Below are positions 10,137-47,848 of a stretch of DNA of 56,022 bases, one piece after another. Both the position numbers and the translations under genes were made by a program. The notes beneath the pieces were generated by a model, which did not search any database, was not told where the DNA came from, and saw nothing but the letters and a program-made list of their open reading frames with translations. The stretch is from a virus (Duplodnaviria > Caudoviricetes), in the IMG/VR virus record IMGVR_UViG_3300018005_000018, positions 1 through 56,022 of that record, one strand, 5' to 3'. Positions within the stretch are counted from its first letter, which is position 1, and each line of letters begins with the position of its first letter.

Positions 10137-10735
10137 TTCTTCACATTTGTTTTTTTCATTTTTGTCGTATCACCTGTAAAATCTTTGGGATACATCCTGA
10201 GTTGATCCCCATTAGGTAAAACCGTAGGCATACCCCGACTGTTAGTTATAACCGGCATCCCCAGATTATCTATCTTACGACTATTCTTAGTGGTATGTAA
10301 GTTATTGAGGAATATCCCTGTCAAACCTATCAGCGCCATCACAACCCAGATCACCCTTTGCCATCCATCTTGTTTTTTCTTTTCTTCAAGGTCTGCTGCA
10401 ATCTTATCCCTCTCATCACGTTTTTCAACCTCATTTACCTGCACTCCCACTCTTGTTATCTCAGCAAGAAGGACATTATGGTTCTCATTGATTCCTTTTA
10501 ATTCCTCATGCACTCCTTCAATCGTCTTTAGTACTCCTTGCTGCCGTTCATTGATTAATGCCACCTGTCTGCAAAGCCCTTTCTCTGGATCACCATTACC
10601 CGTTATGATAACAGACAACTGCTGATTGCTCTTTATAAGATGGTTGATGTCATCTTTCTCAGAGCATTTATGAATATATACTCTTTTTGTTTTTGCCCGA
10701 ATGGCGGGTTTGCGCTTTGTTGCCATATCATCCAT
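10133..10735 (-). CDS. Coiled-coil membrane protein, possible lysis accessory (holin/spanin-like)
   Basis: GNGDPEKGL motif, heptad-rich middle, one TM segment (VIWVVMALIGLTGIFL); adjacent to candidate endolysin. Confidence 0.45.
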   Translation of the reverse strand: MDDMATKRKPAIRAKTKRVYIHKCSEKDDINHLIKSNQQLSVIITGNGDPEKGLCRQVALINERQQGVLKTIEGVHEELKGINENHNVLLAEITRVGVQVNEVEKRDERDKIAADLEEKKKQDGWQRVIWVVMALIGLTGIFLNNLHTTKNSRKIDNLGMPVITNSRGMPTVLPNGDQLRMYPKDFTGDTTKMKKTNVKK

Positions 10736-23084: not shown

Positions 23085-23818
23085 TTCTTTGCTACGAATA
23101 ATAGACAATCTCCGTGTGGTGTAGGCTCAACCATTTTTGTCATTATGCTTTTAAACCCGGCATCGAGAAAGCATCGCATCATCTCCTGTGGATACATCCA
23201 AAATGCTGTTTCGTTTAGACTTGCGCAATATTCTTCGAGGGTGTTTCTCAAATTTCCCCAGAACATCACCTTGCCTAAATATGTCTGTCCCATTGCCTCT
23301 ATATGACTTTCCTCCTTACATGGGTATTCAGCACTAGCTACCTGCGACCATACAAATACCATGTCTGTAATTTTTGCCATGTCGTAGATTAGTTGTGCGG
23401 GGTTTGTCTGATGATACAAAACTCCAAGTGCAGTCACCACATCAAATTTATCTCCCTTGTAGTTTGCTACATAGTTACAGAAGTCTCCAAATACAAACTT
23501 AGCTTTCATTAGTTGAAATGCCTCTTTGACTATCAGACATCGCATAAAACAATCGGAAAGTCCCTCTATACTTATGACCTCCTTTGCACCACGATCTACC
23601 ATCATTTTAGTATGTGCTCCCTCTAATGGCCCTAATTCAAGTATGTATTTCCCTTTTACATCGCCAACTGTCTCTATAAGCCATGTCAGATATGGACTCG
23701 TCTGCCACATCGCTGTGCCTCCGACCAACTTACCATTTATCTCAAACTGAGTAGTCCATCCTTTCATAATGGCAAACATAGATTCAGGAGAACAGTCTGT
23801 GCCAATTATTGTATTCAT
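23081..23818 (-). CDS. Class I SAM-dependent methyltransferase
   Basis: ILELGPLEG motif I, FDVVTALGVLYH. Confidence 0.85.
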   Translation of the reverse strand: MNTIIGTDCSPESMFAIMKGWTTQFEINGKLVGGTAMWQTSPYLTWLIETVGDVKGKYILELGPLEGAHTKMMVDRGAKEVISIEGLSDCFMRCLIVKEAFQLMKAKFVFGDFCNYVANYKGDKFDVVTALGVLYHQTNPAQLIYDMAKITDMVFVWSQVASAEYPCKEESHIEAMGQTYLGKVMFWGNLRNTLEEYCASLNETAFWMYPQEMMRCFLDAGFKSIMTKMVEPTPHGDCLLFVAKK

Positions 23819-24330
23819 AGTATTCTACTTATAACATTGAGGTTTGCAAACTCCCCAAATAATTCTTTTGCTGCGTTATTATAAGCAATTGCAGCAAGTT
23901 CTTCAGTTGCAAATGAACCCAATCCTTTGCGTTTTTTATCTATATTTATATAAGCAGTTATTGTCTTATATTTCTTTTGCTTATCATTCTTGCCTCTTAC
24001 AAAACTGACGCAAACTCCCTTAAATCTTGACTTACCCCAAGAAGTTTTATTTTGTTGATTTTGAGAATTTGTGCATAATCTTATATTATATTTTTGATTA
24101 TTCAACCCATTATGATCTTCATGATCAACCTGTACTCCTTGTGTAGCATTAAGTATTTCCCTGTGCATTTGAATATTTGGTCTCTGTTTGCCATTTAAAC
24201 GCCCATTATATCTTGTTGCATAATAAGTATTTCTATGTTTTCTGGCGAACCATTTCCATTGCATGAGGAAATCATAATTATCATCATCTACTAATGCGAT
24301 CTTACCTTGTGTTAAATGAATTTCTTTCAT
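23815..24330 (-). CDS. HNH-AP2 homing endonuclease
   Basis: MKEIHLTQGKIALVDD, MHREIL, VDHEDHNGLNNQKYNIR, FKGV...LGSF...AAIAYN; ATG 24330 preferred. Confidence 0.9.
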   Translation of the reverse strand: MKEIHLTQGKIALVDDDNYDFLMQWKWFARKHRNTYYATRYNGRLNGKQRPNIQMHREILNATQGVQVDHEDHNGLNNQKYNIRLCTNSQNQQNKTSWGKSRFKGVCVSFVRGKNDKQKKYKTITAYINIDKKRKGLGSFATEELAAIAYNNAAKELFGEFANLNVISRIL

Positions 24331-24432
24331 TGTACCAATATTTAAAAGAATGTACCAAAAAATGTAGTGAGAAAGAGTTGGTACTTCTCCTTTCATCGGG
24401 CAATTACCCCCGACTATCTCACCACAAAGATA
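24331..24432 (-). promoter_or_regulatory. Promoter plus structured RNA leader of the HNH-AP2 gene
   Basis: TATCTTTG (24425-24432); GTGGTGA/TCACTAC, TCGGG/CCCGA and GAAAGGAG/CTCTTTC stems; loop GTACCAA complementary to two downstream TTGGTAC. Confidence 0.55.
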
Positions 24433-24443
24433 TAAATTATTTT

Positions 24444-25655
24444 TCATTTACCTATAACGGATATATTCGGAAACATCACAATAAACTTACCAGAATACTG
24501 CCCTTTTAAAGAATCAATAATGTAGTCTTTGAAATTATGTGCGAGAATAAGTATATAATCGGGCTGAAAGGCTTTTAATGATTCCCGACTGATAACTTCA
24601 ATACCTGTTCCTGGCACGAACTTGCCCTGTTTGAACGGAGTGTCATCAATGATGAAGGGGATCATATCATCATTTATCCCACAGCTATTAAGAAACACAC
24701 ATCCTTTCGCTGCAGCACCAAAACAAACAATCGTCTTATTTATTGCCAAAAGATCATAAATGAATTTACGAAATGTCTCTATTTTCTCGTGTGTTCTCTT
24801 TCCCCATTTGACACAATATTCCTCGGTAATAGTTTTTTCCAGATTAAGGAATGACAATATTGTGCTATCAGGATATCTGTATGATGATTCTTTTACACTA
24901 AGCACACGTAATGTCCCTGCGTGCATATCGTGATATGATACATTAACAACCCTTAATCCTTCCTGTGCCAATAGATCAACAATATTTTTCAAGCAATAAT
25001 AATACACATGTTCATGATAAATCTGGTCATAGTTATCATTTGCAAGCGTTGTGAGGATATATGGAAATTCCAGACACCATACACCCTCATTTGATAAATT
25101 CCTCTCTACACCTCTCACAAATGAACGAATATCGACAGTATGCTGAAACACGTTTGTTGATGTTATTAGTTTTGCTTTATATGGTAATCTTGTTTGCGAA
25201 TCAAAATAAATATTCAGATATTCGATGCCATTCTCTTTGTTAATATCAATAAAACTTTTGCTACAATCCACGTTCACATAATGCAGATTACAGTTCTCTT
25301 TGCGGAACTCCATAAGGAGACTACCGTCATTGCCTCCTATGTCCACCACCAAATCTTTATCTTTGAAGTTCACATGACGGGATAAGTAGTCATACATTTT
25401 TGCACAATGATCAAGATAGGGTTTGTTAACTCCCGACTTATAGAGATAGTTTAGAAACATATCATCTTTATTGACAACATCAGTCAAACATATTAACCGG
25501 CTCTCATGGAAGAATTGTATTGCCAATGGGAATCTCTGACAAGCCAATGATTCTTTTTTTGTATCACAGAAATTATTCACCAATGGTACAGTCCCAAGAT
25601 TAAGAAATTCTACTCGTTTTATACTACCGGATATGGGACATGAATCAATCTTCAT
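24444..25655 (-). CDS. NDP-hexose C-methyltransferase (NovU/TcaB9-like)
   Basis: LGTVPLVN, VDIGGNDG, TNVFQH, YHEH, FGAAAKG, KQGKFVPGTGI motifs. Confidence 0.9.
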   Translation of the reverse strand: MKIDSCPISGSIKRVEFLNLGTVPLVNNFCDTKKESLACQRFPLAIQFFHESRLICLTDVVNKDDMFLNYLYKSGVNKPYLDHCAKMYDYLSRHVNFKDKDLVVDIGGNDGSLLMEFRKENCNLHYVNVDCSKSFIDINKENGIEYLNIYFDSQTRLPYKAKLITSTNVFQHTVDIRSFVRGVERNLSNEGVWCLEFPYILTTLANDNYDQIYHEHVYYYCLKNIVDLLAQEGLRVVNVSYHDMHAGTLRVLSVKESSYRYPDSTILSFLNLEKTITEEYCVKWGKRTHEKIETFRKFIYDLLAINKTIVCFGAAAKGCVFLNSCGINDDMIPFIIDDTPFKQGKFVPGTGIEVISRESLKAFQPDYILILAHNFKDYIIDSLKGQYSGKFIVMFPNISVIGK

Positions 25656-35519: not shown

Positions 35520-35975
35520 ATGGAAACTTACAAGAGCAAAATGCCGGAAATAAAACTAATCCTCAAAAAAGGAGAGGTCTTGAAATGCAAGATCAAAGAA
35601 AGCAAGGACGCTGCCGATTTATTTCGGCAGATATGGGATAAAGACAGTTTAGAATTATACGAAAGTTTTATTTGTATTTATCTTAATCGAGCAAACAACA
35701 CAATAGGATGGTTAAAAATAAGTCAAGGGGGACTATCGGGGACAGTCACAGATGTAAGGCTAATTTTAGCAACTGCCTTGGGCTGTGCTGCATCTGGTAT
35801 GATTATGGCACACAATCACCCTTCAGGCAATATTAATCCTTCTGATTCTGATTCTAAAATAACACAAAAGATTAAAGAAGGTGGTAATATTATGGACATT
35901 CAGGTTTTAGATCATATAATATTGTCAGGCGAAAATGAAGACTATTACAGTTTTGCGGATAATGGATTTATTTAA
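35520..35975 (+). CDS. radC: RadC-like JAB-domain protein
   Basis: E...LNRAN...GGLSGTVTD...AHNHPSGNINPSDSD...LDHII. Confidence 0.92.
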   Translation: METYKSKMPEIKLILKKGEVLKCKIKESKDAADLFRQIWDKDSLELYESFICIYLNRANNTIGWLKISQGGLSGTVTDVRLILATALGCAASGMIMAHNHPSGNINPSDSDSKITQKIKEGGNIMDIQVLDHIILSGENEDYYSFADNGFI

Positions 35976-36057
35976 TGTTTTTGCCCGTTGCAAGTCGGGA
36001 CAATACAGAGCACTCCGGCAAATAACCGGAGTAATGTAAACCAAAAACACACGCATT

Positions 36058-42614: not shown

Positions 42615-43189
42615 TTATACTTTATTTAAAGGATGGTTTGTCTTATTATCAATAACAAAATTATTGTATGCTTCTGCTGCTTGATGCGATGTAGAATACC
42701 AACCTAATTTATATTCAATATTATTCCATTGGATTCTTGCCAGCCATGGCTTTTTAAGATTTTTCTTTTTACGAAAAATTACACCTCTATATCCAGATGT
42801 GTTGCTCGATCTGAGAAGACTATTGTTTTGACAACTAATATTAAATGTTACCCATCGACAATTATCGGGTTCGTAATTGCCATCATTATTCTCTCTGTCT
42901 AAAAGAAGTCCTGTTTCATAACCGTTCAATAAAGACCATTCATAAAACATTAAAACAGATTTCCTCCATCCCGTACAGACGGAAATGCCTCTGCCTCCAT
43001 AATTTTTATATTCTACTACACTTGGGTTATAGCACCTTTGTATCATATTCCTCCATGCTCCATAAATAGGATGTCTTGCAAGTCCATGAATAATTCTCTT
43101 TTCTGATCTCAGTTCTAATTGTTTACAACCACATGATCTTGTATGACCTGAATTGACATGTGAAACGCTTGCCTTAAAAGCTTTACCGC
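42615..43189 (-). pseudogene. HNH-AP2 endonuclease lacking its native N-terminus
   Basis: TRSCGC, WRNMIQRC, YGGRGI, LDRENNDGNYEPDNCRW, NTSGYRGV, AAEAYN; family-like sequence begins abruptly at [C]GKAF at the insert edge. Confidence 0.7.
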
Positions 43190-43197
43190 TTAGTTTT

Positions 43198-44076
43198 CTA
43201 ACAAGCTTTCTGCTCGTCAATTTGCTTTTGCAGTTCGGCGCAAAAATTAACATATCCGCGGTATTCATTAACCTGCTCATCAGTATAATTTCCGCGTCTT
43301 GCAATTTCAAGGCCGCTCTTAAGCCATTCGCTTATTGTGTATTTGTGGCAACCTATGTTAATATCACCAGTTCCATACCAAATAACTGTATGTTTTGTGC
43401 CGGTGATGCAAATAGTTTTTTGTATTACAACCCCATCGCCAATCGAAGCCCTTGAGCCAATAAAAGCCCAATCGCCAATCGAAGCCCCATCGCTAATCGA
43501 AGCCCCATCGCCAATCGAAGCCCTTGAGCCAATCAAAGCCCCATCGCCAATCGAAGCCCCATCGCCAATCGAAGCCCTTGAGCCAATCAAAGCCCCATAG
43601 CCAATCGAAGCCCCATCGCCAATCGAAGCCCTTGAGCCAATCGAAGCCCCATAGCCAATCGAAGCCCCATCGCCAATCGAAGCCCCTTCGCCAATCAAAG
43701 CCCCATCGCCAATCGAAGCCCCATAGCCAATCGAAGCCCTTGAGCCAATCGAAGCCCCATAGCCAATCAAAGCCCCATCGCCAATCGAAGCCCCATCGCC
43801 AATCGAAGCCCCTGAGCCAATCGAAGCCCTTGAGCCAATCGAAGCCCCATCGCCAATCGAAGCCCCATCGCCAATCGAAGCCCTTGAGCCAATCAAAGCC
43901 CCATCGCCAATCGAAGCCCTTGAGCCAATCGAAGCCCAATCGCCAATCGAAGCCCCATCGCCAATCGAAGCCCAATCTTTAATAATAATTTTTCGCTCTG
44001 CGAGCGCTTCTTTTGCTGTTTCAAAATCAAACGATTGCCAGCCTTTGCCGTCAACCCATAAGTTTATAGTTTTCAT
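43198..44076 (-). CDS. Hexapeptide-repeat (left-handed beta-helix) protein
   Basis: Start MKTINLW; ~30 x G[D/S/Y][G/R/W]A[S/L]I; C-terminal IGCHKYTISEW domain. Confidence 0.8.
   Translation of the reverse strand: MKTINLWVDGKGWQSFDFETAKEALAERKIIIKDWASIGDGASIGDWASIGSRASIGDGALIGSRASIGDGASIGDGASIGSRASIGSGASIGDGASIGDGALIGYGASIGSRASIGYGASIGDGALIGEGASIGDGASIGYGASIGSRASIGDGASIGYGALIGSRASIGDGASIGDGALIGSRASIGDGASISDGASIGDWAFIGSRASIGDGVVIQKTICITGTKHTVIWYGTGDINIGCHKYTISEWLKSGLEIARRGNYTDEQVNEYRGYVNFCAELQKQIDEQKAC
43433..43978. repeat. 18-bp tandem repeat array, ~30 units
   Basis: Unit CCAATCGAAGCCCCATCG with a few recurring variants. Confidence 0.95.
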
Positions 44077-44149
44077 CCTTTTTCCGTTTTGTTTAATGTT
44101 GTAATCTATTCCAAAGTGTGAGGGTTGCGCGGTGCATGCGTTCAAATTT

Positions 44150-44340
44150 TGCATACTCTTTGCAGTCAATCGCACACTCGCCTTTAATGTAGTCGCCAGG
44201 TCGCAGCCGGTTTTCGTGCGCCGGCAGCGGGCCATAAATCCTTCAATGTACTTGAGCCATTCAAGGGGCGTGAGGTCAGCCTTTTCGCGGTTGCAGGGCA
44301 CGCAGCTGCGCACCTTCAAAACGCCGCCAACATGGGCCGA
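44150..44340 (-). pseudogene. C-terminal fragment of an HNH nuclease
   Basis: HVGG...SCVPCNREKADLTPLEWL with no N-terminal CxxC/DH half; left boundary approximate. Confidence 0.55.
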
Positions 44341-45039
44341 CTAATTAAAATACCGTTTGACGTCTGCCTCAAGGTCTTCAAGCTTACGCTGGGCTTCCTT
44401 GATGTTTTTTTCAGCCTCAAGCCGCTGCTGGCCAGAGTAGCGTTCAATGGCTTCGGCTTTGAGCACTTCAAGCGGCTTGGCAACGTCACCCCAGCGGGCA
44501 AGCAGATAATGCTTGACGTCGTTTTCACAGCTGCAAGTGCTTTCACTGTATGGCTTCAAGTTATGTTCTTTTAGCCATTGGCCGCATTCAGCCACGCTTT
44601 TAAGCTTGGCGTCCCAGTGACACTTCCAAACTTCGCTCACAAGTATGAAGTCGTAGCTTATGCCAATAGCGACGGGGTCTTGCTTTTGGTCATCGTGCCA
44701 AATTTCAATCTTCTGAAAATAGCCCTCTTTAATACTCAGGGCCACAAGGTCAAGCACCTCAAGCGGTATGGGCGCACGGTTGTACTTGGCAACAAGGTCA
44801 ACCACGGGACAAAGCACCTTAAACACCCGTGTTAAGCCTTCGTTCATATAAAGGAACGGCACGGGGCTTTTTGCGGTTTCAACATTCAGCTTCTGCTGGC
44901 CTTCAAGGCCAAGCGTAGCGCAAATTTCATTCCATTTTGCGAGCGCATCGGCATCGTAAATGAGTTCGGCGGTTTCCGTGACAATGTACTTTTCAACCAC
45001 GGTCGGCCGGTTGCTGTTCATGCTGTTCAATTGTGTCAT
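44341..45039 (-). CDS. Conserved hypothetical phage protein
   Basis: Start MTQLNS; LGLEGQ...LCP...PIPLEVL...IEIW...DP...YLLARWG. Confidence 0.7.
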   Translation of the reverse strand: MTQLNSMNSNRPTVVEKYIVTETAELIYDADALAKWNEICATLGLEGQQKLNVETAKSPVPFLYMNEGLTRVFKVLCPVVDLVAKYNRAPIPLEVLDLVALSIKEGYFQKIEIWHDDQKQDPVAIGISYDFILVSEVWKCHWDAKLKSVAECGQWLKEHNLKPYSESTCSCENDVKHYLLARWGDVAKPLEVLKAEAIERYSGQQRLEAEKNIKEAQRKLEDLEADVKRYFN

Positions 45040-45538
45040 CTTCGTTTTTGTTATTGGTTTCGTTTTCAAATTGTTTTTTCTCAATGGCCGCCAGCGGTTC
45101 ACATAGGCGGGCCTCAATGTCGGCAACCTCTTTGCGCAGCAGTGGTTCGCTTTGCATGAGTATGCGGCACTTGGTTTTTGAAAAGTGTATGTTATCCCGC
45201 TTTGGGCCAAGCGTTTTGGCAACTTCATGCTCACTGCCGAACTGTACGGCAAGGTGTGCAATAACTTGGCGGGCACGCACAAATTCCTTATACCGGCGTT
45301 TGCCCCGCACGTCTTGTAGGGGCAATTTGTAGTAATCAGCCACGGCACTTTCAATGAGTAGCAACTGATGGGCCTGCATAGTTTCGGCCTTGGCGTTAGG
45401 CTTCCATTTAAGAAATTCCGTTAGCAACTGTTCAGGGCTGTTTTCGTTGCGGTGTTCATGGTAAAACTGCGCCCAAACCACCATTTCATAGAAAGTGTAT
45501 TGGCGGCCGCGCAGGGCTTGTCGTTTGTTTTCTGTCAT
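44993..45538 (-). CDS. Protein with DnaA C-terminal (domain IV-like) HTH
   Basis: IESAVADYYKL...VRGKRR...VRARQV...EVAKTLG.KRD. Confidence 0.75.
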   Translation of the reverse strand: MTENKRQALRGRQYTFYEMVVWAQFYHEHRNENSPEQLLTEFLKWKPNAKAETMQAHQLLLIESAVADYYKLPLQDVRGKRRYKEFVRARQVIAHLAVQFGSEHEVAKTLGPKRDNIHFSKTKCRILMQSEPLLRKEVADIEARLCEPLAAIEKKQFENETNNKNEDDTIEQHEQQPADRG

Positions 45539-45631
45539 GGCTGCATAATTTTAAGTCGCACAAGTTCATTGTAACACCGCATTGTCGCGGGTTTCGGGCA
45601 GGCGGGTGAGTATTTCCTTCACCTGTGCCAT

Positions 45632-45761
45632 GGTATTAAAATTAAAAGTCCCGCAAACAGAAGGCTCATCAACTACACCCGGAGGGATAATTGCATCTGC
45701 TTTTGGGACTAATATAATTTCTTTTGATTCCATGATGTAGTTAATGAGCACTACAAATATA
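45632..45761 (-). promoter_or_regulatory. Promoter plus A-B-A'-B' structured RNA leader
   Basis: TATATTTG 45754-45761; 16/16 pairing (2 G-U) of 45734-45749 with 45664-45679; 13/15 pairing of 45696-45710 with 45647-45661. Confidence 0.7.
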
Positions 45762-45779
45762 TGTAAAATAATCCACATC

Positions 45780-46196
45780 TCATAAAGTTTTTAAAGTAAT
45801 TTCCGTGCGTGGTCTCTCTGAATAAAGTTTATATGCAGTTAATTGACAGATAAGTGCATCATCTTTGTAATAGATTTTATTGAGTGCATCCTGGACAAAT
45901 TTTGTCAAATTATCTAAGTCTGGTCTTCCTGAATGATGTTCCGGTGCGGAATCTTTTAACATATCACTGTTTTTACCGCTTCTGTAATGAGATCGGGGTC
46001 TGGACATGTAGAACACCAACTCCAAGGCAATAGGCTCGGAAATCGGTTCTTTTGGGGCTTCCTGTTGAATTATTGAGGCAAATGTTTCTTTTGACTTTGC
46101 AGACGGATCATAACTGCCAGAAAAAGTCCCTCTGGTAAAATGCCTGTGCCTTGCTTGTGCCTTTGGCTCACCCAATATTGTGCGTTTTATTTCCAT
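45780..46196 (-). CDS. rusA: RusA-family Holliday junction resolvase
   Basis: GEPKAQARHR...RPDLDNLTKFVQDALN..YKDDALI. Confidence 0.92.
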   Translation of the reverse strand: MEIKRTILGEPKAQARHRHFTRGTFSGSYDPSAKSKETFASIIQQEAPKEPISEPIALELVFYMSRPRSHYRSGKNSDMLKDSAPEHHSGRPDLDNLTKFVQDALNKIYYKDDALICQLTAYKLYSERPRTEITLKTL

Positions 46197-46426
46197 TACT
46201 TCTTCACCTCCGTTCCTATTATTTTCAATTGTTCTGGCAGAAAACACATCACCTCTCCTGTCTTGACATGCTGGCAAATTGCAACTGTAAAACTCACTCC
46301 TGTCTCATTGATAATGTCCATTTTCAATCCCCAATGTAACAAAAAATACAAGTCTTTCTCAATTGGCGATTCATCTTCTTTCAGTTCACCCTCTTTCTCA
46401 TATGTTACCTCTGCCAATGTTCTCAT
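46196..46426 (-). CDS. Hypothetical protein
   Basis: LHWG...TVAIC...TGEV...PEQLK. Confidence 0.6.
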   Translation of the reverse strand: MRTLAEVTYEKEGELKEDESPIEKDLYFLLHWGLKMDIINETGVSFTVAICQHVKTGEVMCFLPEQLKIIGTEVKK

Positions 46427-46741
46427 CTTTTATGTATTTCCAAATCCATCCTTGTTTTGTCGGTGTGCCTCGAAGCATTGCTTTGTATATCCCATCAGCC
46501 GTAAATCCTGTCTTTCTTGCTGCCTCTTTTTGGCTTCCAAAAGTGTTCAATAAATTATCTTGTGCATCATCTGACCGATTTTTTTACTTCCATGTCCAAA
46601 TTCAATATGTCTGCCTCTCTCATATCCTGCCACCCATGCCAGATCAACATATTTCCTCACTTCTCCTATGCAGTCCTCACAGACTATCCCTCCCATCCTC
46701 ATGTCCCTCACAATACGATTAACAGCAATATCTTTCTCCAT
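46398..46741 (-). pseudogene. NUMOD1-type DNA-binding protein split by a 1-nt frameshift
   Basis: KKIGQ then, in another frame, DAQDNLLNTFGSQKEAARKTG...GWIWKY; one base missing near 46570. Confidence 0.7.
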
Positions 46742-46744
46742 AGG

Positions 46745-47848
46745 TTAATAACATTCCTGATTGATCTTGACAAACTCTTTCATAAGTTGTTCTTCTGTAG
46801 GTTTCTCCTTTATGCGATTATTGAATGTACGTGATTTTGCGCCTTTGCGTTCGCTCCAATCAACTGTTCCCAGTCTGCCAAAATCAATCTGCTCAGCACC
46901 AGCTAATGTCAAGTCTTTTACTAGAATGTTCTTAATACTGTCCCTTTCATCATCAATAATACCTTTGATGCCATTAAGGACTTTATCACGCTTACACAGA
47001 TCATAAGTACGCATTGTCCCTTCGATAGAATCTCTTTCCCTGAGAAATTTCTCATTCATAAAAGATGTATATGCCTCCGTGTGATCCGGCTCAGGTTCGT
47101 ATTTCTGAATGATAGCATCGTATTTCTCCACTTCTGCTATGTTACCTGCCTTCTCTGCCTCCTGCTTCTTGGAAAACGCTTCTTTCGCGGGTAAAACACG
47201 ATTTTCCCAAAACTGCTTGCTTATGTCAATGATGCGTGTGCAAAGACCATCATCCCTTTGAACTTTCTCAACCATGAACTCATTGCCGTCTTTTAATATA
47301 GCTATCTCTGCATAATCGGTTTCTAGAATAATCATATAGACATGAACCTGTATCAGATAACTTATGGGGATTCCGTCGATCCACATTTGGCTTGACCAAT
47401 AACTAAGTGTCTTAATTTCGAGTACTGCCTCCGTTGTTAATTTCTCGCCTGTAAGAAGATTAATCCCCCCCTTAATATTCTGTATCCTGTCAAATGAACC
47501 AAATAACCACGGATAAGTCGGATTGACCACAAGTCTATTAACATTTCTGCATTGGCGAATAATCTTATTATTTTTGAAGTTTTCAATCCATCCATCATTT
47601 GTACCATCGTAAAACTCCCATAACTTGGCGATATTATCCTCCATATATCTTCCAAAGAACATCTTTGCATTGTCAATCTGTCGTGGTTCTGCCATGCCGA
47701 TTTTTTCATAGAAGGTGCGTGTCACAGTATCGTATTTATTTAATCCGAGTACCGTACTCATCTCACTTCCTCCTATTCCTGATTGACGGTATTTGAACCA
47801 TTCAGAGGTTTGCTGCGGTATATATGTTATTATAAGATCACTTTTCAT
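46745..47848 (-). CDS. YqaJ/lambda-exonuclease-family recombination nuclease
   Basis: EWFKYRQSGIGGSE, FGRYMED, GSFDR, LEIKT, QVHVYM. Confidence 0.9.
   Translation of the reverse strand: MKSDLIITYIPQQTSEWFKYRQSGIGGSEMSTVLGLNKYDTVTRTFYEKIGMAEPRQIDNAKMFFGRYMEDNIAKLWEFYDGTNDGWIENFKNNKIIRQCRNVNRLVVNPTYPWLFGSFDRIQNIKGGINLLTGEKLTTEAVLEIKTLSYWSSQMWIDGIPISYLIQVHVYMIILETDYAEIAILKDGNEFMVEKVQRDDGLCTRIIDISKQFWENRVLPAKEAFSKKQEAEKAGNIAEVEKYDAIIQKYEPEPDHTEAYTSFMNEKFLRERDSIEGTMRTYDLCKRDKVLNGIKGIIDDERDSIKNILVKDLTLAGAEQIDFGRLGTVDWSERKGAKSRTFNNRIKEKPTEEQLMKEFVKINQECY

Follow-up and report, generated by a model that had tools for sequence, protein, structure and literature searches.

A conserved promoter-proximal leader with two predicted alternative folds, associated with phage homing endonuclease genes

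Background

Homing endonuclease genes of T-even phages are restrained by RNA structure. The relevant passages of PMC2988022 describe 5' hairpins over the ribosome-binding site by which the genes of I-TevI, I-TevII, I-TevIII, segB and mobE are curbed. In T4, according to the same passages, a late promoter lies inside the 5' arm of the hairpin and late transcripts are made without the inhibitory arm (PMC2988022). We describe here a leader from a window of 56,022 nucleotides of viral DNA (the whole stretch that was analysed). It resembles the T-even hairpins, as far as these passages present them, by a stable 5' RNA structure that would occlude the translation start of a phage homing endonuclease gene, by a promoter immediately beside the structure, and by its occurrence in intron-free, free-standing endonuclease cassettes (PMC2988022). 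It differs from the T4 case described there in that transcription is predicted to start on the first base of the anti-sequestering strand, which would give every transcript all four strands, and in having two conserved predicted folds, an upstream ORF and no Shine-Dalgarno sequence. Moreover, one leader sequence serves at least five nuclease families here, whereas each of the T-even genes described has its own hairpin.

The maturation-protein gene of MS2 is under kinetic control by delayed folding: the equilibrium fold hides the start, and the nascent fold is translatable. The hok mRNA adopts metastable folds, and an overlapping upstream frame is translationally coupled to that of the toxin (mok-hok). 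The leader described here would share with both an equilibrium fold that hides the start, only a nascent or non-equilibrium fold being translatable. It differs from them by its unrelated sequence and its other strand arrangement; moreover, its early fold would be a helix of 16-20 bp behind barriers of 19-33 kcal/mol, which would trap the RNA durably instead of delaying it by seconds.

Trp-type leader-peptide attenuators and erm-type translational attenuation are also known, and Rfam includes a Bacteroid-trp leader. As in these systems, a short ORF upstream of the putatively regulated gene runs through alternative helices, but the pairings are interleaved (1:3 and 2:4) instead of 1:2, 2:3 and 3:4, regulatory codon runs are absent, the peptide is unconserved and the U-tract is weak. 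HEARO, the IscB-associated omega RNA, is a motif next to an HNH nuclease gene and serves as guide-RNA scaffold for IscB. The likeness consists in an RNA adjoining an HNH gene; the difference is that between a guide scaffold and a putative mRNA leader, and no Rfam match of this kind was found in the window. To our knowledge, the restraint of homing endonuclease genes outside T-even phages is little known, and cis-regulatory RNAs are poorly charted in Bacteroidota. The phages carrying the present leader appear to use promoters and translation signals of the Bacteroidota type, and the leader has strong covariation support.

Helices of the leader in the window

The leader is a conserved stretch of ~118-125 nt on the minus strand, which would be transcribed into mRNA from its promoter onwards and is predicted to take two mutually exclusive folds. 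A repeat search, combined with reading of the sequence, gave its two long helices. The 5' strand A, GCUCAUUAACUACAUC (45749-45734), pairs 16/16 with A', GGUGUAGUUGAUGAGC (45679-45664), two of the pairs being U-G. The 5' strand B, AGUCCCAAAAGCAGA (45710-45696), pairs 13/15 with B', UCUGUUUGCGGGACU (45661-45647), around a 2-nt internal loop; B' begins 2 nt past A'. A start codon, AUG1 (45733-45731), stands directly 3' of A and in frame with a second one, AUG2 (45631-45629), which is separated from B' by a U/A-rich spacer of 15 nt (45646-45632). The spacer is probably the ribosome landing region. Both helices with their 16/16 and 13/15 pairings and the two U-G pairs, the U-rich tract followed by an AUG and the in-frame upstream AUG had all been proposed in a sequence-only reading of this DNA, and they were recovered at these positions. 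AUG2 heads a 21-codon ORF in the window; in relatives the homing endonuclease ORF begins with it. As a minor observation, the spacer weakly resembles a terminator tail.

Shorter elements complete the leader. Loop L2 (45693-45680) contains the 5' strand of a hairpin C (45693-45687 and 45685-45684) and its tetraloop, which is UCCG in the window copy; the 5' half of A' (45679-45670) doubles as the 3' strand of C. The strand formed by AUG1 and the next two bases (45733-45729) is common to the two predicted states.

The best interleaved helix pair of the window leader has an energy of -33.3 kcal/mol, compared to -11.7 +/- 3.8 in dinucleotide shuffles, none of which (0/300) reach the observed value. 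The fold z-score is -3.16 / -3.0 for the minus strand and -0.99 for the plus strand, the latter being no better than shuffles. Four DNA runs of peat metagenomes, one of them possibly its source, contain all or part of the stretch; the leader is covered without variation in contigs of two of them (X1 and X2) and uncovered in X3 and X4, and no RNA sequencing runs containing the stretch are listed.

Homologous leaders and covariation

Twelve further full-length copies were found in viral and metagenome contigs, which makes 13 with the window copy. Most of them were retrieved via peptide patterns, so that open frames are favoured among the homologues. Over the 13 copies, 376/377 pair cells of helices A and B are paired and 13 of the 29 pairs are changed on both sides. 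Helix A is unbroken in all copies (208/208 cells; 9/16 pairs double-changed) and helix B nearly so (168/169 cells; 4/13 pairs double-changed). The paired fraction, the double changes and the covariation score of this alignment were each reached by 0/500 shuffles, a control that overstates the significance because the 13 sequences are related; slid controls, which are free of that problem, were 38-49% paired. G-U pairs occupy ~50 of the 377 cells (~13%). Since, in addition, the plus strand folds no better than shuffles, the structure belongs to the sense (minus) strand, in agreement with the RNA-level selection that had been suggested from the minus-strand G-U pairs of the window copy. Two divergent variants, L149 and L165, keep the A-B-A'-B' order with other helix sequences (0/300 shuffles each).

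A covariance model, R1, was built from 12 sequences, the window copy among them, and comprises the -7 box, 4 nt, A, AUG1, B, A', B', the spacer and AUG2. It scores the window copy at 152.9 bits (E 1.7e-37) and an independent full copy, L164, at 136.9 bits; the divergent copies are matched at E 0.012 (L165) and E 0.25 (L149). In L004-L008 and 18 of L138-L159, R1 found beyond the known copies only L149 (E 0.25) and a partial match in L144 (E 0.085). Most HNH-AP2 genes fetched by protein similarity are without the leader, which is a lineage-restricted element. An exact 17-mer scan of viral contigs returned at least 114 stretches, and among 122 loci nhmmer retained the L002 contig alone as homologous. 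A degenerate pattern of the 23-nt loop found the same three contigs already known when run on viral contigs, and blastn of the 1.4-kb leader locus against phage records gave no match.

No Rfam family fits the leader at its gathering score (cmscan, Rfam 15, 4227 families). At E<=10 the only matches are TeloSII_ncR49 (20.5 bits vs 55) and SNORD65 (14.1 bits vs 41), both at chance level (E 1.7-1.8); the sole gathering-score match in the whole window is a twister-P3 at 35977-36048. A group I intron or other ribozyme at the leader site was rejected, Rfam giving no match there. The sequence-only reading had staked its inference on homologues with compensatory changes, which exist (13 copies, 13/29 pairs double-changed), and on the leader lying outside existing Rfam families, none of which accounts for it. 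In the literature (full texts) we found the T4 precedent and no description of the present leader.

Promoter and predicted transcript start

Immediately upstream of helix A lies a -7 box, TATATTTG (45761-45754), of the Bacteroidota sigma-A type TAnnTTTG. The Bacteroidota -7 box is placed at -12..-5 in the passage of PMC9723704 that deals with it, which would make the first base of A (45749) the +1; the transcript start, like both folds and any regulation, is a prediction. TAnnTTTG is found in 15/16 leaders, the exception being L165 with TAnnTTTA, and the distance from the box to helix A is 4 nt in 16/16. Helix A begins at the predicted +1 in each of the 15 significant leaders and the +1 base is a purine in 13/13 copies. 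A TTG at -32..-35 is present in 10/16 leaders and absent from the window copy. The genes upstream differ among loci, and similarity between loci starts exactly at the -7 box. Judging by the predicted start, the box lies upstream of all helices and not within the 5' arm, where the T4 promoter is found.

Across the window TAnnTTTG is not enriched (80 matches vs 66 +/- 9 expected). Judged from the promoter type alone, the hosts of these phages are probably Bacteroidota. A tblastn search of phage records with the RecE-like exonuclease yielded, among the matches listed, only matches of ~24-28% identity from mixed hosts. The 23-nt degenerate loop pattern had no match in 185,579 prokaryote genomes and therefore gave no prophage or host clue.

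Neighbouring genes and upstream ORF

The gene upstream of the leader, on the same strand (46277-45780), encodes a RusA-like resolvase (Pfam RusA 2e-26; phrog_140 5e-37) and stops ~30 nt before helix A; L123 has the same order of RusA and leader. Downstream, the 21-codon ORF that starts at AUG2 stops at 45566 and is followed by a gene for a 181-aa protein (45538-44993, minus strand) that has a DnaA C-terminal HTH (Pfam Bac_DnaA_C 1.5e-7, 31.8 bits vs a cut-off of 31.5) and is not a nuclease; no relatives of this protein were found in viral contigs. The earlier view of this place as an HNH-AP2 locus therefore does not hold in the window. The leader of the window is an orphan, with no endonuclease gene behind AUG2.

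The situation is different in related copies, for 12 of the 15 DNA copies (13 close and 2 divergent) have a homing endonuclease gene directly downstream, as in T4. The downstream ORF belongs to HNH_3/AP2 in eight cases, to NUMOD4+HNH_3 in two, and to a phrog_374 HNH and an endonuclease VII in one each; three copies have none. In a protein search, the leader peptide was found at E<=1e-3 in 35 cluster representatives. Nineteen of these, longer than 80 aa and with the leader ORF at their N-terminus, were scanned, and 16 of the 19 predicted proteins match endonuclease families (phrog_99, 5; phrog_374, 5; phrog_59, 2; GIY-YIG-type, 4; nothing, 3). Judging by these matches, one leader sequence is common to nuclease genes of at least five families. 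Of the class of leaders that had been proposed to control homing endonucleases, the association thus stands (12/15 DNA copies, 16/19 proteins), and control is what this association suggests.

An upstream ORF runs from AUG1 through all helices. In the window it reads on in frame past AUG2 and extends over 55 codons (45733-45566, minus strand), against 34 in relatives. AUG1 is present in 13/13 copies and the frame is open in all of them. It is in frame with AUG2 in 5/13, ends with a TGA overlapping AUG2 in 7/13, and ends 14 nt past AUG2 in one. Two compensated pairs of indels in L1 preserve both frame and length. In L149, whose leader sequence is largely different, a 30-codon upstream ORF ends at an ATGA on the endonuclease start. 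An open frame of this length arises in 9-26% of mononucleotide shuffles, depending on leader type. Variation of the ORF shows no third-codon-position bias over the 13 copies, and no match was found in Pfam and PHROG. A short leader ORF, as found in leader-peptide attenuators, is present; a regulatory codon run is absent from the peptide, which is variable and unconserved.

Alternative folds

Helix A:A' excludes B:B' by topology, without sharing a strand with it. Several conserved pairings are compatible with B:B'. L2 is the most conserved stretch of the leader; hairpin C is 97% paired across copies, with a UUCG tetraloop in 11/13, and RNAalifold independently predicts B and C. A further helix, D, joins the AUG1 region to the AUG2 region and is 97% paired with two double-changed pairs, part of this pairing being automatic since CAUG is self-complementary. 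An extension of helix A, in which the AUG1 strand pairs with the UCCG/UUCG (45683-45680), is paired in 48/52 cells. Column 93 covaries with column 22 in helix A and with column 72 in hairpin C. The covarying pairs number one in hairpin C and two in helix D and come from few related sequences, a thin support for these two helices.

We call state I the fold with A:A' and state II the nested fold with B:B', hairpin C and the start-codon pairing. As helix A is incompatible with the latter, a two-state leader is indicated rather than a pseudoknot; this preference is also based on the 2-nt link between A' and B', on the length of both helices, which exceeds one turn, and on the conserved helices that re-use A' and the AUG1 region. 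State II is computed to be more stable in 12/13 copies, with ddG from -10.4 to +2.7 kcal/mol. Transcripts of the window copy have A:A' as their minimum-energy fold at lengths of 76-120 nt, and state II takes over from 125 nt upwards, once AUG2 is made. Nested-path barriers between the folds amount to 19-33 kcal/mol; the choice of fold is therefore probably made during transcription. Positions -12..+3 of AUG2 have a mean unpaired probability of 0.56 in state I against 0.27 in state II, with state I giving the higher value in 13/13 copies. In silico, state II thus includes the endonuclease start region in a hairpin, as in T4 (97% paired, 0.27 unpaired). Between the states the accessibility of AUG2 changes about two-fold, not in an all-or-none manner.

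Two other pairings were rejected: that of L1 with the U-tract, in the register of the window minimum-energy fold, is only 63% paired across copies, and a hairpin of the -7 box region with the 3' half of A, seen in the window fold, is present by eye in ~5/12 copies.

Proposed function and alternative explanations

The observations consist of the conserved helices, which on paper exclude one another, the promoter position and the association with endonucleases. To account for them, we propose that promoter and leader form the 5' module of a mobile homing endonuclease cassette, carried by a lineage of phages, in which two folds gate initiation at AUG2; we put the probability of this explanation at roughly one half. 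The promoter would be followed at once by a leader of ~118 nt with two exclusive folds. In state I strand A, the initial 16 nt of the RNA, would pair with A', four more pairs burying the U and G of AUG1, and B, B', the A/U-rich spacer and AUG2 would be left single-stranded. In state II, A would become a free 5' tail and the remainder one long hairpin, made of B:B', the UUCG-capped C re-using the 5' half of A', and the AUG1 region paired with the AUG2 region; AUG2 and its landing region would be concealed. State I, formed first during transcription, would be open and state II, more stable, closed, which would constitute a gate on AUG2. A ribosome loading on the nascent leader at the upstream ORF, whose 34 codons start right after A and end at AUG2 or run in frame into it, would melt every helix and reach the endonuclease start. 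In the window, the orphan leader would now head the 21-codon ORF and the DnaA_C-like gene. We infer that translation, rather than termination or decay, is the gated step. The endonuclease ORF could be reached in either state, by ribosomes that initiate directly at AUG2 (state I) or by those that enter from AUG1 while the RNA is nascent; a portable on/off control of these genes is therefore offered as a proposal.

Leader-peptide attenuators are an established kind of control, and a transcription attenuator would use the same strands otherwise: B:B', with C in its loop, and the U-rich tail would be an intrinsic terminator and A:A' the antiterminator. A ribosome on AUG1 would cover A while A' emerges and so allow the terminator; with no ribosome, A:A' would form and transcription would read through into the endonuclease gene. 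Consistent with this, the start of the upstream ORF abuts the 3' end of A, no fold of transcripts of 76-120 nt, with the polymerase on the tail, is better than A:A', and in the window copy (W), L002 and L123 the G+C-rich base of B:B' is directly followed by UUUUAAUUUU. A good U-run is found in these 3/13 copies only, however: the tail of the other ten is UUAUAUAU-like or CUAUUUUU, with 0-2 U directly past the stem, and that of L149 is UUUACUUAU, 6 nt from AUG2. The stem encloses 33 nt, a simple terminator scan finds nothing at the spacer, and the leader peptide is unconserved and without a regulatory codon run. Termination would also leave unexplained why the upstream ORF reaches AUG2 and why both start regions pair, and we hold it to be unlikely. 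The same is true, to a slightly greater degree, of a role in mRNA stability or processing, where the blunt 5'-terminal helix of 16-20 bp would block 5'-end-dependent decay, or a long helix would be an RNase III site, and the alternative fold would expose the 5' tail and mark the RNA for decay. Protective 5' stem-loops are well documented, as are RNase III sites in phage leaders, and such a role would accord with the position of helix A at the predicted +1 in 15/15 significant leaders, its invariant 4 nt to the -7 box and its integrity in 13/13 copies. Yet 16 bp is short for RNase III, and the conserved B:B', hairpin C, the start-codon pairing and the upstream ORF are left without explanation; such a role would in any case be compatible with a gate on AUG2 rather than exclusive of it.

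A static H-type pseudoknot with A:A' and B:B' formed together, for instance as a ribosome roadblock or a protein-binding fold, seems improbable. Both helices are conserved with covariation, and the loops of 23 and 16 nt would be long enough in contour length. Against it, A' and B' are joined by only 2 nt and the helices (16 bp and 13-15 bp) exceed one turn, so that, from the geometry, a 3' strand attached to the polymerase would have to thread a closed loop; moreover, a pseudoknot has no need for a conserved C, D and extension of A that re-use A' and the AUG1 region. We consider very improbable that the inverted repeats act at the DNA level, as an operator or recombination site, or are the by-product of a conserved N-terminal peptide. 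Promoter-proximal inverted repeats can indeed be operators, and I-TevI represses its own promoter according to the passages cited above (PMC2988022). But in the duplex, or on the opposite strand, the ~13% of G-U cells would read as A-C mismatches, the plus-strand z-score is -0.99, and at least five nuclease families would have to depend on a single operator. As to a peptide, every copy keeps an open frame; the double-changed stem pairs, however, swap amino acids non-conservatively (D-E, G-K, D-S), a third-position bias is lacking, and the peptide is unfused to the nuclease in 7/13 copies.

If two folds do gate AUG2, a leader of ~120 nt with two defined folds, an upstream ORF and natural compensatory variants would offer a testable model of co-transcriptional fold choice, and also a model for translation control without a Shine-Dalgarno sequence. 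The leader is a candidate for a new Rfam family and a possible marker for endonuclease cassettes in metagenomes. A broader idea, which we regard as doubtful, is that of a shared and self-contained module: a bistable RNA, kinetically set and resettable by ribosomes, behind which unrelated nucleases (HNH / beta-beta-alpha-Me, endonuclease VII, GIY-YIG) were each placed. Its DNA might double as landing pad and recombination handle for the replacement of endonuclease genes, orphans such as the leader of the window being empty sites. If true, this would be the first RNA regulatory family defined by a mobile nuclease cargo and not by a metabolite or protein ligand.

The leader at 24.4 kb

A parallel A-B-A'-B' topology had also been reported at 24.4 kb in the window. 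It does not stand out there, as the best interleaved pair from the predicted +1 is reached by 72/300 shuffles; the fold z-score of this leader is -1.99. The R1 model of the 45.6 kb leader matches it only at E 1.2, and its membership of the same class is unsupported. The two loci were moreover thought to be tied to HNH-AP2 genes. This does not hold at 45.6 kb; it does at 24.4 kb, the only such locus of the two, where an HNH-AP2-type gene is found at 23815-24447 (phrog_99, 2.7e-27).

Organization of the leader in the window

The leader is single-copy in a 56 kb viral metagenome record classed as linear and ~76% complete, and the genes around it are on the minus strand. A RusA-like gene (45780-46277, minus; Pfam RusA, 2e-26) ends ~30 nt before the element, which opens with the -7 box TATATTTG (45761-45754, minus). 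On the same strand follow helix strand A (45749-45734), the upstream start codon AUG1 (45733-45731), which abuts A as the sequence-only reading had noted, an A-rich loop L1 of 20 nt, strand B (45710-45696), loop L2 of 16 nt, strand A' (45679-45664), a linker of 2 nt and strand B' (45661-45647). The U-rich tract and AUG described behind B' correspond to a U/A-rich spacer of 15 nt and to AUG2 (45631-45629). A repeat search bore out the proposed pairing of A with A' (16/16, two U-G pairs included) and of B with B' (13/15). The HNH-AP2 gene that the same reading had placed at this locus is absent: the frame from AUG2 has 21 codons (stop at 45566), and the product of the next gene (44993-45538, minus) is 181 aa long and has a DnaA C-terminal HTH. 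Within 44800-46400, G+C ranges over 0.25-0.45 on the side of the RusA gene and the leader versus 0.43-0.53 downstream of the leader, which hints at different origins of the two sides.

Leader homologues and downstream genes

The leader locus gave no blastn match in phage records. A search with the leader-covering ORF yielded one viral contig (L002), in which these 135 nt follow another gene and immediately precede an HNH_3/AP2 endonuclease ORF. The N-terminal 45 residues of the leader ORF retrieved six predicted proteins, in which this ORF is fused to differing endonuclease-like bodies. The peptide alignment led to eight loci from metagenome contigs and four from viral contigs, all confirmed by nhmmer. 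Twelve distinct leader copies were aligned after removal of duplicates, and a covariance model built from them with helix A only detected a 13th full copy (L164, 136.9 bits) on the contig of L132, together with two divergent copies, L165 (E 0.012) and L149 (E 0.25). The L132 contig, viral and 12.6 kb long, carries three cassettes of leader and HNH-AP2 gene (10482-10618, 2481-2617 and 821-945, all minus); the third leader has diverged, and a one-base frameshift or an assembly error apparently interrupts the nuclease ORF behind it.

When the downstream genes were tallied, an endonuclease was found in 12 of the 15 DNA copies. It is of HNH_3/AP2 type in eight (L002, L127, L129, L132, L164, L149, L134, where it is short, and L165, where it is apparently frameshifted), NUMOD4 plus HNH_3 in two (L124, L125), a phrog_374-type HNH cut by the contig end in L123 and an endonuclease VII in L126. 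The three copies lacking a nuclease are those of the window, L128 and L130. By eye, the first ~nine codons in L130 are typical of HNH-AP2 genes before the sequence diverges, which suggests that a nuclease was lost there. ORFs resembling, by eye, DnaA C-terminal HTH proteins adjoin three cassettes (L126:1089-1574, L127:228-593, L129:417-794), as in the window, so that the cassettes may favour a replication and recombination module.

When 1.84 billion cluster representatives were searched with a profile, 35 proteins matched at E<=1e-3, five of which were left out as internal multi-stretch repeat matches (P0016, P0034, P0038, P0039, P0042). The 19 proteins longer than 80 aa were compared with PHROGs: five match phrog_99, five phrog_374, two phrog_59, four homing-endonuclease families and three none; the remaining 11 are 34-66 aa long. 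The four in homing-endonuclease families, known as proteins alone (P0028, P0032, P0033, P0036), have the leader ORF fused to homing-endonuclease PHROG matches (phrog_7168, phrog_314), and two of them also match the GIY-YIG family phrog_5123, a nuclease superfamily other than HNH. What is unusual is that one leader sequence should serve at least five families of selfish nucleases. HNH-AP2 genes do not carry the leader in general: in HNH-AP2 loci L004-L008 and 18 of L138-L159 (L139, L143, L145 and L147 being omitted as duplicates), the covariance model found it only in L149, with a partial match in L144 away from the nuclease gene.

No Rfam 15 family matches the leader, and no description of one like it came up in full-text searches of the literature. 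The RNA family is new, and its general kind, the cis-acting two-state mRNA leader, is already known.

Promoter and host

Similarity among leader loci starts exactly at the -7 box, the upstream sequence and genes being unrelated. In 15 of 16 leaders, TAnnTTTG is separated from helix A by 4 nt (TAnnTTTA in L165); TTG is found at -32 to -35 in 10 of 16 and is missing there from the window copy. TAnnTTTG is the Bacteroidetes consensus (PMC7366714) and the Flavobacterium sigma-A box spans -12 to -5 (PMC9723704); this spacing places the predicted +1 on the first base of A, a purine in 13/13 copies. Judging from the promoter type alone, the host probably belongs to the phylum Bacteroidota; protein similarity to cultured phages was too low to indicate a host.

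Conservation of the interleaved helices

The best interleaved helix pair of the window leader reaches -33.3 kcal/mol against -11.7 +/- 3.8 for dinucleotide shuffles, none of which (0/300) attains its score. Across the 13 aligned copies, the 16 pairs of helix A are formed in 208/208 cells, with nine pairs changed on both sides, and the 13 pairs of helix B in 168/169 cells, with four such pairs. Column shuffles never matched the observed paired fraction, double-change count or covariation score (0/500), and sliding the partners by 1-3 columns lowered pairing to 38-49% and double-change pairs to 0-1.

A DNA-level or coding-only explanation is a rival to selection on the RNA. G-U pairs, which the sequence-only reading had taken to favour selection at the RNA level, occupy ~50 of 377 pair cells, which argues for sense-orientation RNA (or a single strand) rather than duplex DNA; compared with shuffles, folding is stronger on the sense strand (z -3.16 and -3.0) but not on the opposite one (z -0.99). 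On the coding side, AUG1 is present in 13/13 copies with a frame open for 34 codons, which is in frame with AUG2 in five, ends in a TGA overlapping AUG2 (ATGA) in seven and ends 14 nt later in one. Two compensated indel pairs in L1 preserve frame and length. In L149, with its mostly dissimilar leader sequence, an upstream ORF of 30 codons likewise runs to an ATGA; in L165 the stop lies inside B'. Depending on the leader type, 9-26% of mononucleotide shuffles contain a frame of such length, and the finding of most copies through peptide patterns biases the set towards open frames. Part of the AUG1 conservation is due to pairing roles, CAUG being self-complementary. Variable columns spread evenly over the three codon positions, and non-conservative residue replacements caused by stem changes, argue against a functional peptide. 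In our reading, translation of the upstream frame may matter and the peptide itself does not.

A second fold and its interpretation

Run without hints, RNAalifold predicted B:B' plus a hairpin C, in which columns 71-80, from L2, pair with columns 85-94, the 5' half of A', and whose cap is UUCG in 11/13 copies. In three sequences, column 93 has changed together with column 22, to which it pairs in helix A, and with column 72, its counterpart in hairpin C. Pairing between columns 29-34, around AUG1, and columns 131-137, around AUG2, is kept in 97% of cells and includes two double changes; in the A fold, AUG1 instead contributes its U and G, along with the two bases that follow, to pairing with UUCG (48/52 cells). 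Helix A is incompatible with this nested fold. Each of three strands (A', the AUG1 region and the tetraloop) thus has a choice of two conserved partners, as is characteristic of a switch. The leader, then, is promoter-proximal, carries an upstream ORF, has two conserved folds that are predicted to exclude each other, and travels with endonuclease genes.

Energies were compared on the transcript from +1 through 18 nt past AUG2. The nested fold (state II) is the stabler in 12/13 copies (ddG -10.4 to +2.7 kcal/mol), and the region -12 to +3 of AUG2 is more open in the A:A' fold (state I) in 13/13 (mean 0.56 versus 0.27). In the growing chain of the window copy, A:A' is the minimum-energy fold from 76 to 120 nt and state II takes over only at >=125 nt, once AUG2 is made. 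For direct nested refolding, the computed barriers are 19-27 kcal/mol from I to II and 28-33 kcal/mol in the reverse direction; with this order of folding, they indicate that in the model the fold is probably chosen during transcription, or reset by the ribosome.

Among sequencing runs queried for the sequence, no RNA run was listed as containing it. On these models, we give roughly even odds (about 0.5) to the leader gating initiation at AUG2. State I would form first and be open, state II would be closed and more stable, and a ribosome catching AUG1 on nascent RNA would translate across every helix as far as the start of the nuclease gene. The closest known parallel is that of T-even phage endonuclease genes, where hairpins lie over the ribosome-binding site (PMC2988022); there the promoter is inside the inhibitory arm, unlike in the present leader. 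An element acting on 5'-end stability or through RNase III is a rival to such gating. Transcription attenuation is weakened as an explanation by a poor U-tract in 10/13 copies and an enclosed loop of 33 nt. The sequence-only reading had proposed a pseudoknot or a two-state leader, and the second half of this proposal is favoured. A static pseudoknot, with A:A' and B:B' formed together, appears unlikely, since A' and B' are joined by only 2 nt, both helices exceed one turn and the competing helices would be without a role.

The locus at 24.4 kb and other elements of the window

A leader of parallel topology had been claimed at 24.4 kb. The gene there is indeed of HNH-AP2 type (phrog_99, 2.7e-27), and the locus also has a -7 box and an upstream AUG that is in frame, but the parallel topology is unproven: the long helix uses bases upstream of the predicted +1, the interleaved score of the leader from +1 is ordinary (reached by 72/300 shuffles), its fold z-score is -1.99 and the covariance model matches it with E 1.2 only. 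No close homologue of this leader was found among the loci retrieved.

At 46398-46550 (minus), a 50-aa ORF resembles a PHROG annotated as HNH endonuclease (phrog_20162, 6.5e-6), the match being confined to the C-terminal end of the latter. The stretch 46455-46788 is replaced by 358 other letters on a related contig from a peat metagenome DNA run, and so varies between strains. An HNH endonuclease ORF at 42615-43310 (minus; phrog_374 type, 8e-49), whose family is also found behind the leader in L123, P0004 and P0006, has no ATG of its own and abuts a hexapeptide gene; it may be a truncated or fused copy. The latter gene (43198-44319, minus) is a 373-aa ORF made nearly entirely of hexapeptide (left-handed beta-helix) repeats (Pfam Hexapep, 4.9e-34; phrog_5353, 1e-82), across which all six frames are open. 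Finally, a twister ribozyme of type P3 (RF03154; E 3.7e-8, 51 bits with the gathering score at 39.9) is located at 35977-36048 (plus), directly after the stop of the ORF 35520-35975 (plus).
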